DNA from: a virus
Lineage: Duplodnaviria > Caudoviricetes
Length of the DNA stretch: 64,000 bases
Virus record (IMG/VR): IMGVR_UViG_3300020366_000001
Span: 123,436-187,435 of that record
Strand: one strand, 5' to 3'
Shown: positions 36,474 to 62,986 of the stretch, in pieces
Position numbering within the stretch: the first letter of the stretch is position 1
Layout of the letters: each line of letters opens with the position of its first letter
The notes under the pieces: generated by a model
Databases searched by the model: none
What the model was told of the DNA's origin: nothing
Seen by the model: the letters and a program-made list of their open reading frames with translations, nothing else
Translations under genes and position numbers: made by a program

Positions 36474-36558
36474 TAGGAGTGGGGGGACTTGAACCCCCAC
36501 GACCTTAACGGTCAACAGATTTTAAGTCTGGTGTGTCTACCGATTCCACCACACTCCC
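36474..36558 (-). tRNA. tRNA-Leu(UAA)
   Basis: GGGAGTG...CACTCCT acceptor stem, D-loop GGAATCGGTAG, anticodon loop CT-TAA-AA, long variable arm GACC-GTTAA-GGTC, T-loop GTTCAAGTC. Confidence 0.95.
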
Positions 36559-53050: not shown

Positions 53051-53122
53051 CTGAGGTGGCAGGGATCGAACCTGCGACCAATCGATTAACAGTCGATAGC
53101 TCTACCGCTGAGCTACACCTCA
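53051..53122 (-). tRNA. tRNA-Asn(GUU)
   Basis: TGAGGTG/CACCTCA acceptor stem, TAGCTCAGCGGTAGAGC D-arm, ATCGA-CT-GTT-AA-TCGAT anticodon arm, GTTCGATCC T-loop. Confidence 0.95.
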
Positions 53123-59522: not shown

Positions 59523-59549
59523 AAAAAAATGAGGGTCGCTAGACCCTCA
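59523..59549 (-). terminator. intrinsic terminator closing the riboswitch operon
   Basis: TGAGGGTC-TAGC-GACCCTCA followed by T7. Confidence 0.8.
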
Positions 59550-59705
59550 GTCATTGATCTTCCAGTTTTTATTGCCTCGTGACTTAAGATTAACCCACTT
59601 GGCGTAGTGTACACCACGGTACGTTAAGAGCGCGAACGTTCTTGCTGGATCGTGTTTGTTTGGATCAAATTCTGGAAGGTCATATTCTAAACTGACCTTC
59701 AGCAT
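59547..59705 (-). CDS. small protein with YRGV motif (DUF4278-related)
   Basis: MLKVSLEYDLPEFDPNKHDPARTFALLTYRGVHYAKWVNLKSRGNKNWKIND. Confidence 0.65.
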   Translation of the reverse strand: MLKVSLEYDLPEFDPNKHDPARTFALLTYRGVHYAKWVNLKSRGNKNWKIND

Positions 59706-59986: not shown

Positions 59987-60054
59987 TTGTTTTCTCCTGA
60001 AGTGGGTGGTTTTTCTCCTTTAACCCCGAAGGGTGATCCGAGTTTCCCGTTCCT

Positions 60055-60222
60055 TCAGTCGTTTGCGTCCCAGTAGTATTCACATTCAGGTAAGGCTTCT
60101 CTCACAGTCTCAATCAATTCTACCTGAAGTACAGGTTCAAGATTTCGATCTGCTTTGATCTTGAGCATCAACGTATCCGCATCAGCGCAAGCCATACTCG
60201 AATATAGTAGAAATTCAAACAT
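60055..60222 (-). CDS. 55-aa protein embedded in the second aptamer (not in ORF track)
   Basis: MFEFLLYSSMACADADTLMLKIKADRNLEPVLQVELIETVREALPECEYYWDAND; GGAG 10 nt upstream; paralog of 60258-60458. Confidence 0.7.
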   Translation of the reverse strand: MFEFLLYSSMACADADTLMLKIKADRNLEPVLQVELIETVREALPECEYYWDAND

Positions 60223-60257
60223 AGGATGAACGCTCCGTTCCGCGACTTACTTGCGTC

Positions 60258-60458
60258 CTAGATTAACATACTGTCACACGGACCTTCTACTTTAGTCTTA
60301 AGATAACCGATAAGGTTATACTTAGTACGACGATCTAAGTTGTCATCCATAAGGATTTCAACTCTTCTTTGTAGAAACCTTTCACACGACATATGCCACC
60401 CATAAGGTGAACCGTCTTGATGATGGGCTAAGGTCAGTGCCAACAGTAAGGTAACCAT
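60258..60458 (-). CDS. 66-aa protein embedded in the first aptamer
   Basis: Hydrophobic N-terminus, two Cys; ATG follows CGTTCATCCA and its TAG overlaps the GGACGC half-site. Confidence 0.7.
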   Translation of the reverse strand: MVTLLLALTLAHHQDGSPYGWHMSCERFLQRRVEILMDDNLDRRTKYNLIGYLKTKVEGPCDSMLI

Positions 60459-60475
60459 TGGATGAACGTATGGGT

Positions 60476-60504
60476 ATTGTAAACCCTATACTCTATTTAG
60501 TCAA
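60476..60504 (-). promoter_or_regulatory. sigma70-type promoter with overlapping late-promoter-like CTAAATA
   Basis: TTGACT-17 nt-TACAAT; predicted +1 at ~60469, immediately before the first aptamer. Confidence 0.75.
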
Positions 60505-60529: not shown

Positions 60530-60967
60530 TTACTTACGGTTTCCCCACTGCACTGCAGGGAATGCTTCCTTGACTACGTTCTCAGTGATTCTATATTTTT
60601 TCTTAAGGTCCTTATCTTTAACCAAGCAGATTACTTGTGCCTCATCTGCGTGCAAACCCTCTAAAAGTCCCACAAACATTGATTCTCTCTTGAGAGCAGG
60701 AGTGCCATCAGAACCACCCTTAACGAAGTAGTGCAAGATTCTATGCTCCTGGGACAGTCTGGTGTGTTCGGTCCCAGCAGGTGCTTCGTTAGGTTTGTAC
60801 GGAACAGAACCCTCAGGAAGAGCACTCTGGATGCTGGGATCGAAATTCATAATCAAAACCTTTCTGAGAGCATCACTATTATGCTCTTTCAGAAGTTTGA
60901 TCTTCTCCGCTTTGGTCTTAGCGTTGCTTACTTTTTGAAGCACTTCAGAAATTAATAATTCAGTCAT
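60530..60967 (-). CDS. conserved T4-like phage hypothetical protein
   Basis: LISEVLQKVSNAKTKAEKI, FD....LPEG.VPY, KRE.MF..LLEGLH..EA. Confidence 0.8.
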   Translation of the reverse strand: MTELLISEVLQKVSNAKTKAEKIKLLKEHNSDALRKVLIMNFDPSIQSALPEGSVPYKPNEAPAGTEHTRLSQEHRILHYFVKGGSDGTPALKRESMFVGLLEGLHADEAQVICLVKDKDLKKKYRITENVVKEAFPAVQWGNRK

Positions 60968-61930: not shown

Positions 61931-62986
61931 TTAGAGAGCGTTACCTCTAGGGAGAACTTCTTCAGGGAAGATAAAGTTTTCGTGTGGTTGATCAACTGGT
62001 GCCAACCAAGCACGCAGACCTTCGTTGAGAAGAATGTTCTTAGTGTAGAAGGTTTCAAACTCAGGATCTTCTGCCGCTCTAATCTCTTGACTCACAAAAT
62101 CATAAGCACGTAGATTAAGAGCAAGGCCAATAATCCCGATACTACTGGTCCAAAGACCCATAACAGGAACAAATAGCATAAAGAAATGAAGCCACCTCTT
62201 GTTGCTAAAGGCGATACCGAAGATCTGCGACCAGAAACGGTTCGCGGTGACCATTGAGTAGGTCTCCTCTTCCTGCGTGGGTTCAAATGCCTTAAATGTA
62301 TTGGATTGTTGTCCGTCTTCATAAAGGGTGTTCTCCACCGTGGCACCGTGAATAGCACAGAGTAGTGCTCCTCCCAGTATACCAGCAACTCCCATCATAT
62401 GGAAGGGGTTGAGTGTCCAGTTATGAAATCCTTGTAGAAAAAGTAAGAATCTGAAGATTGCCGCGACGCCAAAACTCGGCGCAAAGAACCAACTGGATTG
62501 TCCCAGAGGATAGATGAGAAATACACTAACAAATACGGCAATAGGACCCGAAAAAGCAATTGCATTGTACGGTCTAATCCCTACGAGACGACTAATTTCA
62601 AACTGTCGTAGCATAAACCCAATCAGGGCGAAGGCACCGTGGAGCGCCACAAAATTCCAGAGTCCCCCAAGCTGGACCCAGCGGACGAAATCTCCCTGAG
62701 ACTCAGGACCCCAAAGTAGAAGAAGAGAATGACCCATAGCATCAGCAGGCGTTGACACAGCCGCTGTAAGGAAATTAGCACCCTCAAGATAACTACTTGC
62801 GAGTCCGTGGGTGTACCAACTTGTAGCAAACGTTGTGCCAGTAAGCCAGCCACCAATTGCGAGATAAGCAGTGGGAAAAAGAAGTAATCCAGACCAACCC
62901 ACAAAGACAAAACGATCTCGTTTAAGCCAGTCATCAAGGACATCGAACCATCCGCTCCTTTGTTGTACTAGTGTTGATGCTACCAT
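61931..62986 (-). CDS. psbD: photosystem II D2 protein
   Basis: [21 protein letters not shown]...[10 protein letters not shown]; full length, no intron. Confidence 0.99.

Follow-up and report, generated by a model that had tools for sequence, protein, structure and literature searches.

Small genes in the P2 loops of a predicted interlocked double glutamine-riboswitch core of T4-like cyanomyoviruses

Introduction

Can a ligand-binding RNA house whole protein-coding genes within its own hairpin loops? The question is raised by a 64,000-nt stretch of viral DNA (from record IMGVR_UViG_3300020366_000001; hereafter the window) that belongs to the 187-kb genome of a T4-like cyanomyovirus with terminal repeats. 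On its minus strand, positions 60468-60047 hold two copies of a glutamine-riboswitch core, and each P2 stem encloses one open reading frame (ORF); all coordinates of the element given below are window positions, and the element lies throughout on the minus strand. A first-pass annotation, made from the letters alone, had described this arrangement as a tandem glutamine riboswitch with whole genes in both P2 loops.

Glutamine riboswitches have been described before, including tandem arrangements and examples from a few cyanophages. Weinberg and colleagues reportedly noted 'tandem' glnA RNAs in 2010. Two Rfam families are relevant here: RF01739 (glutamine, glnA; glutamine-I), with a gathering score of 35 bits, and RF01704 (Downstream-peptide, glutamine-II), with a gathering score of 33 bits. 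Glutamine aptamers are located upstream of DUF4278 genes and function as ON switches at the level of translation (PMC6212724). For phages, a 2017 survey from the Breaker laboratory found only two glutamine riboswitches in cyanophage genomes, and phages were inferred to use riboswitches rarely (PMC5473149). The published phage matches are 92-99 nt long, scoring 44-46.7 bits, and therefore represent compact forms.

Results

Layout of the element

Copy 1 opens with the 9-nt 5' half-site CGUUCAUCC (60468-60460), which comprises CGUUC (the P1 5' strand), a junction A and UCC (P2a bases 1-3). The start codon of ORF1 (66 amino acids, phrog_6471; 60458-60258) follows 1 nt after this UCC; the ORF occupies the P2a loop, and its TAG overlaps the P2a 3' strand, giving the first G of GGA. 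The 24-nt 3' half 1 (60258-60235) then runs through GGA (P2a), the ACGC linker strand, AAGUA (E-loop 5'), AGUCG (P3 5') and GGAACGG, the last of which combines a P1-type 3' strand with the long-range G. An AG linker (60234-60233) joins copy 1 to copy 2, which begins with a second CGUUCAUCC (60232-60224) composed of CGUUC, A and the beginning of P2b. ORF2 (55 amino acids, phrog_504; 60222-60055) occupies the P2b loop and reads through 3' half 2 (60070-60047), consisting of the P2b 3' strand, ACGC, CGACU (P3 3'), GAA (E-loop 3', 60056-60054) and GGAACGG (60053-60047). Its stop UGA (60057-60055) falls at the P3/E-loop junction, and its C-terminus WDAND is aptamer bases read as protein. The P3 pentamers AGUCG (60247-60243) and CGACU (60061-60057) are mutually complementary. 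On re-reading the sequence, the coordinates and motifs assigned by the first-pass annotation to half-sites, ORFs, linker and pentamers were all exact, as was its placement of the ORF1 start beside the half-site, of the UAG running into the 3' half and of the UGA at the P3/E-loop junction. The two P1s that it had called intact (CGUUC/GAACG) are indeed present, each strand being found twice and being invariant in more than 200 loci.

Compact relatives and the identity of the aptamer

The identity of the element is carried by natural relatives, which were collected from IMG/VR with three anchors. Fully compact homologues score 43.6, 42.9, 40.3, 38.6 and 38.4 bits on RF01739, above the gathering score, and occupy the same locus, with the same promoter upstream and the same output gene downstream as the ORF-bearing form. 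These ORF-free loci thus supply the match to the glnA model that had been anticipated for the sequence with its loops removed, and they argue for the glutamine-riboswitch identity proposed in the first-pass annotation. Half-site 1 is aligned to RF01739 positions 3-11 in the compact homologues, and the core bases of the window equal those of one compact locus (L015) except in the 2-nt linker. Phage S-SM1 combines the two forms: a UUCG tetraloop replaces the first ORF while the promoter, the second ORF and the downstream gene are kept, and this element, compact at P2a only, scores 28.9 bits on RF01739.

The core also resembles glutamine-II. The 9-nt 5' half, GGACGCA and GGAACGG are identical to the crystallised Prochlorococcus glutamine-II sequence, and RF01704 scores 34.0 bits for one locus (L033), 20.8-31.1 bits for other loci and gives no match to the window. 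The bases of the long-range pair are present (C in ACGC, G after GAACG) and both are invariant across loci; the linchpin, earlier read as a compensatory C-G, matches in form the normal C19:G41 pair of glutamine-II (PMC6698751), being seen here as bases only. In glutamine-II, the ligand is contacted by bases of CGUUC/GAACG and ACG, it is the PK/P1 helix that depends on the ligand, and an aptamer split into two pieces still assembles with glutamine, the P2 loop being dispensable for ligand binding (PMC6698751). Such two-piece assembly makes the assembly of distant halves plausible here. Judged by these comparisons, the element is very probably a double glutamine-riboswitch core with the architecture described.

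Two cores share one P3 helix

Infernal aligns a single outer aptamer to the element, formed by the first CGUUC, P2a, ACGC with AAGUA, P3, GAA and the last GAACG, in which P3 is composed of AGU.. from 3' half 1 and ..ACU from 3' half 2. In the compact forms 38-48 nt are treated as an insertion inside P3. These nucleotides make up a second core in circularly permuted order (GAACG, linker, CGUUC, P2b, ACGC), which uses the shared P3 helix from the opposite end and has no E-loop. Neither copy suffices alone: copy 1 has AAGUA but no GAA strand and no P3 partner, copy 2 has GAA but no AAGUA and no P3 partner, and the E-loop on P3 is completed only by joining 3' half 1 with 3' half 2. Since the Rfam alignment nests copy 2 in the P3 loop, "interlocked" describes the element better than the earlier term "tandem"; two core copies are present as that term implies, but they are not two independent aptamers, because one P3 and one E-loop are common to both. 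The accompanying claim that P3 can form only between the copies is confirmed, and this helix covaries across ORF2.

An alternative, sequential pairing uses the same bases and leaves them equally paired. Here the partner of each CGUUC is the nearer GAACG, and these helices form a pseudoknot by crossing P3, so that each copy becomes glutamine-II-like and the GGAACGG of copy 1 lies between the P3 strands. Under constraint, the nested topology has an energy of -124.8 kcal/mol and the sequential one of -122.3 kcal/mol (a difference of 2.5 kcal/mol), and comparison does not separate the two because all four P1 strands are invariant. At the linker itself, Synechococcus phage Sf-CH5 (L005, 900-1472) has a homing-endonuclease gene exactly between the copy 1 GGAACGG and the copy 2 CGUUC, with CGUU duplicated, and two further loci (L073 and L110) retain 63-98-nt remnants of the same insert in the linker.

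Helices covary with and without the loop genes

In the set of 65 compact elements, pairing holds in 99.7% of cells, both sides have changed at 8 pairs, and the covariation score is 0.200 vs 0.069 in shuffles, a value reached by none of 500 shuffles; 7 of the 10 counted P2a and P2b pairs have changed on both sides in the compact forms. The helices are likewise maintained around the ORFs. P2 positions 1-3 are 100% paired in ORF-bearing loci, where P2a position 3 is C-G in 23 loci and U-A in 19, and P2b position 4 is C-G in 110, U-A in 21 and U-G in 9. P2 stems of 7-10 bp differ by lineage yet stay complementary (UCUCAUG/CAUGAGA, UCUUAUG/CAUAAGA and UCCUAUGU/ACAUAGGA, with a 10-bp GAUUAUGGUU/GACCAUAAUC stem in L057). 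Native ORF ends pair better than ends exchanged between loci, both for P2a (-15.4 vs -9.4 kcal/mol) and for P2b (-12.4 vs -10.0 kcal/mol), none of 200 permutations being as good in either case. In the window P2b forms 5 pairs. When isolated P2 arms are folded, 100% of native and ~84% of interior-shuffled sequences close, and thermodynamics alone does not discriminate between them.

P3 shows compensatory changes across ORF2 at 3 of its 5 positions (AGUCA/UGACU in 4 loci, AAUCG/CGAUU in 2, AGACU/AGUCU in 1), and a further family with an 8-bp P3 displays a U-A to A-U swap; several of the changes in the P3 3' strand are synonymous in ORF2. The covarying P2a, P2b and P3 helices of ORF-bearing loci span about 150-230 nt. 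The conservation and covariation that were to be looked for in relatives are therefore found, with invariant 5' half-sites and with P2a, P2b and the inter-copy P3 covarying, and the view that each P2 stem closes a whole ORF gains support from stems that still covary where ORFs are present. In three loci (L130, L135 and L152) the junction A after CGUUC and the first C of CGCAAG change together to G and U, which fits the exchange of an A-C for an isosteric G-U pair that would extend P2a.

The loop genes

Both ORFs evolve as coding sequence. The ratio of nonsynonymous to synonymous substitution rates (dN/dS) is 0.20 for ORF1 and 0.38 for ORF2, as expected under the purifying selection that the first-pass annotation had looked to, and the third codon position is the most variable. 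In 133 of 141 loci the P2b loop length is divisible by 3, and length changes are in-frame. The start codon lies at P2 positions 5-7 in nearly all loci, and the ORF2 stop is UGA or UAA at the P3/E-loop junction across loci. By these coding signatures, ORF1 and ORF2 are genes. Initiation of ORF2 appears to draw on the aptamer as well: the sequence GGAG (60236-60233), formed by the last two G of copy 1 and the AG linker, lies 10 nt before the ORF2 AUG, and the linker starts with AG in 105 of 109 ORF2-bearing loci collected with a linker-free anchor vs 3 of 87 loci with a hairpin in P2b. ORF2 is thus probably translated from a Shine-Dalgarno sequence built of aptamer bases.

ORF1 and ORF2 belong to families that are distantly paralogous across a Cys-to-Cys core (hhalign 95.6% and 94.3%). 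An AlphaFold2 model of ORF2 shows a three-helix fold (pLDDT 80.7), and its matches in a protein atlas are unnamed clusters only. ORF2 homologues occur once per record in 309 phage records; the three weakest matches were inspected and all are embedded in the same aptamer layout. Because repeated half-sites flank both loops, we infer that gene conversion between misaligned half-site copies would explain why ORF1 and ORF2 are paralogs and why these ORFs have been gained and lost so patchily.

Occurrence in phages

The junction of the element is found in 426 phage records, once in each, and in more than 200 IMG/VR contigs. The sampled IMG/VR loci display all combinations of hairpin and ORF in the two positions, the P2a loop being either a 12-47-nt hairpin or a 199-234-nt ORF and the P2b loop either a 12-27-nt hairpin or a 142-203-nt ORF. 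ORF1 is replaced by its 12-47-nt hairpin in about two thirds of these loci. In RNA-library contigs from two studies, positions 60071 and 60224 are separated by just 5 letters; these contigs represent relatives with a compact P2b, DNA carry-over into the libraries being possible. A scan of genome contigs for the junction returned chance matches and contigs with the phage promoter and genes that are assigned to MAGs or SAGs of various taxa, with no clear host-chromosome copy. The contigs bearing the phage element (L168-L189, some of 189-194 kb) belong to GTDB entries under the names Prochlorococcus, Synechococcus, Euryarchaeota, Verrucomicrobiales, Dehalococcoidia and Nonlabens; the probable explanation is phage DNA that was binned together with infected cells or obtained by sequencing them. 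One contig with a compact glutamine element (L015) also has a PhotoRC-II RNA at 1021-1116 (57.1 bits, above the gathering score).

Promoter, expression platform and output gene

A sigma-70-type promoter (TTGACT, 17 nt, TACAAT; 60476-60504) precedes the element, and 102 of 145 related loci have a promoter-like motif at a distance of 7-9 nt upstream of the aptamer. In the window 7 nt separate the end of the -10 box from the aptamer, which predicts a transcription start 1-2 nt upstream of the switch. With the switch beginning the transcript, the leader of ORF1 would be ~12 nt long and would consist of aptamer bases only.

Downstream, in the expression platform (60058-59994), CUGAAG (60058-60053) can pair with CUUCAG (60002-59997), which overlaps the AGGAG (59998-59994) of ORF3. 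This helix is part of the minimum-energy fold computed without constraints; at its variable pair, 37 loci have A-U, 29 have G-C, 17 have G-U and none has A-C. A subset of loci also contains a hairpin between the aptamer and the ORF3 Shine-Dalgarno sequence, UUCG-capped in the window (60023-60042, minus strand) and GAAA-capped in many relatives, to which Rfam gives a weak freshwater-2 match (16.7 bits, E-value 9.6). The output gene, ORF3 (59986-59819), encodes a 55-residue DUF4278/IF17-like protein that matches phrog_545 (E-value 1.6e-34) and scores just below the Pfam cutoff of 25.3 for PF14105 (DUF4278; 23.4 bits, E-value 7.6e-5); genes of this kind are the customary targets of glutamine riboswitches. 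A second small gene with an LTYRGVHY motif (phrog_6192; 59547-59705, minus strand) lies 3' of the DUF4278 gene, and a terminator-like hairpin (59530-59549, minus strand), overlapping the 3' end of the phrog_6192 gene, would close the transcription unit. From this arrangement the switch may control a small operon.

Upstream of the promoter is a gene for a DUF6433 protein (60530-60967, minus strand; 173 bits). The upstream neighbour varies in relatives (nrdB, JmjC, 2OG-Fe(II) oxygenase, carbamoyltransferase), suggesting that the riboswitch unit moves as a module. Elsewhere in the window are psbD (61931-62986) and two tRNA genes, at 53051-53122 (71.2 bits) and at 36474-36558 on the minus strand (57.8 bits).

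Discussion

A proposed mechanism

We consider it fairly likely, on the strength of sequence comparison, that the 5' leader of this early cyanomyovirus operon is a functional interlocked double glutamine aptamer with genes in its P2 loops. The two small paralogous genes occupy one P2 loop each. In the absence of glutamine, CUGAAG would pair with the Shine-Dalgarno region of the DUF4278/IF17-like gene and keep ORF3 off; glutamine would stabilise P1 and the long-range pair, drawing CUGAAG out of the anti-Shine-Dalgarno helix and turning ORF3 on, and the direction of the switch would thus be ON, as in cyanobacteria. Assembly of the aptamer would at the same time bury the start codons of both loop genes, together with the 12-nt leader of ORF1 and the GGAG of ORF2, so that the loop genes would be translated mainly before closure or without it. 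Conversely, ribosomes on the loop genes would hold the half-sites apart and delay closure of the aptamer. Glutamine control of the loop genes, or competition between ribosomes and aptamer folding, is physically plausible and draws indirect support from the sequence, with the balance tilting slightly towards doubt. Tentative, and on the whole unlikely, is the fuller proposal of a bidirectional, ribosome-gated switch, in which glutamine turns the IF17-like gene on and hides the starts of the loop genes, translation of the loop genes times closure, and the half-sites served as homology arms by which a loop gene was copied between the P2 loops.

Weighing the alternatives

Several observations count against a functional double aptamer in the ORF-bearing form. 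Rfam gives no glutamine-riboswitch match in the window, either at the gathering threshold or at E-values up to 10, a result attributable to the two gene-sized insertions that separate the halves, and the best matches of RF01739 over the whole 187-kb genome are unrelated (13.2 and 10.7 bits). Both P1 helices and the long-range pair never vary and hence offer no covariation evidence. P2a of the window has 3 contiguous pairs followed by an internal loop, which takes in the stop codon and the AU of the start codon, and by a further helix, the fully folded aptamer states lie 8-10 kcal/mol above the minimum-energy fold by nearest-neighbour energies, and the stability of the leader relative to shuffles is not significant (z = -1.68). 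The homing-endonuclease gene tolerated in the Sf-CH5 linker implies that exact linker geometry is not essential, and the tight integration of start and stop codons could reflect genome compaction, not regulation.

The riboswitch could be real and the ORFs passengers in insertion-tolerant P2 loops behind a strong early promoter, with only the DUF4278 gene regulated and the loop genes translated co-transcriptionally at any glutamine level. A P2 loop of free length (12-234 nt) that glutamine-II can dispense with for ligand binding (PMC6698751), the coexistence of compact and ORF-bearing forms in close relatives and the insertion of a homing-endonuclease gene inside the same element are what passengers would lead one to expect. 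We nevertheless think this explanation unlikely, since the start codon is held in a fixed register (P2 positions 5-7) in two diverged families and the stop lies inside a helix strand, ORF2 uses GGAG from the ligand-responsive P1 strand and has no spacer or Shine-Dalgarno sequence of its own elsewhere, ORF2 homologues were never seen outside the aptamer context, and a ribosome at either start site must cover a half-site. It is very improbable that the riboswitch is a dead relic in ORF-bearing phages, its half-sites kept only to initiate translation, to encode the end of ORF2 and to supply repeated homology arms when cassettes are exchanged: the non-coding core bases are as invariant in ORF-bearing as in compact loci, P2 and P3 show compensatory changes in ORF-bearing loci (with synonymous ORF2 changes matched ~190 nt upstream), and the anti-Shine-Dalgarno helix stays pairing-compatible, even though the window fails Rfam, long-range closure over 150-420 nt of translated RNA is demanding and repeated half-sites around paralogous ORFs would favour gene conversion. 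That the half-sites are short and the window is without an Rfam match might suggest a chance resemblance, or a repeat other than a riboswitch (for example a T4-type mobile regulatory cassette), with ORFs that are not genes; this is scarcely credible given the compact homologues above the Rfam threshold, the formal covariation, the coding signatures of the ORFs, the DUF4278 gene downstream and the presence of the arrangement in 426 genomes.

Relation to known RNAs

The interlocked double glutamine aptamer shares with glutamine-I the P1 CGUUC/GAACG, the P2 hairpin, the AAGUA/GAA E-loop, P3, a putative long-range pair, the DUF4278 output and a translational platform. It differs in that the E-loop and P3 are built from two 3' halves, a second core is nested in the P3 loop, the putative long-range pair is C-G whereas that of glutamine-I is G-C, and the P2 loops (hence the P3 loop) carry whole ORFs that place the halves 170-420 nt apart. 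With glutamine-II, known from marine picocyanobacteria, it shares the core strings and the C and G of the long-range pair, and two-piece assembly is a property of that class; the phage element departs from it in having an enclosing hairpin loop that holds a second copy and a gene, and its scores are mostly below 33 bits.

Group I introns provide an analogy in layout, as structured RNAs that host complete genes, there homing-endonuclease ORFs, in peripheral hairpin loops while the closing helices are kept. The intron, however, is a ribozyme with mobile endonuclease ORFs that have their own spacing, whereas the phage loop ORFs are small non-endonuclease paralogs with start and stop codons in the closing helix. 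In the tandem glycine riboswitch two ligand-binding units are likewise joined, through inter-aptamer contacts, but each unit is complete and without ORFs. Leader-peptide attenuators resemble the mechanism proposed above in that the position of a ribosome on a short ORF selects the RNA fold; attenuator peptides sense tRNA charging and, unlike the loop ORFs, are not conserved functional proteins inside an aptamer. A search of the full-text literature, in which earlier work on tandem glnA RNAs was not fully covered, found no description of genes inside riboswitch loops, in agreement with the first-pass annotation, which knew of none.

Implications

Riboswitches may be commoner in phages than thought, the element occurring in 426 records vs two glutamine riboswitches in the earlier survey (PMC5473149), and most of the 426 are hidden from covariance-model searches because genes occupy their loops; other riboswitch classes may be under-counted likewise. 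The shared-P3 double aptamer represents an unusual route to a two-site sensor, and aptamer halves under selection across 150-420 nt of translated RNA offer a natural test bed for the interplay of ribosomes with ligand-dependent folding. Since the output is a phage copy of a glutamine-synthetase-inactivating-factor-like gene, the switch would tie early phage expression to the nitrogen status of the host, a link that concerns globally abundant marine viruses.

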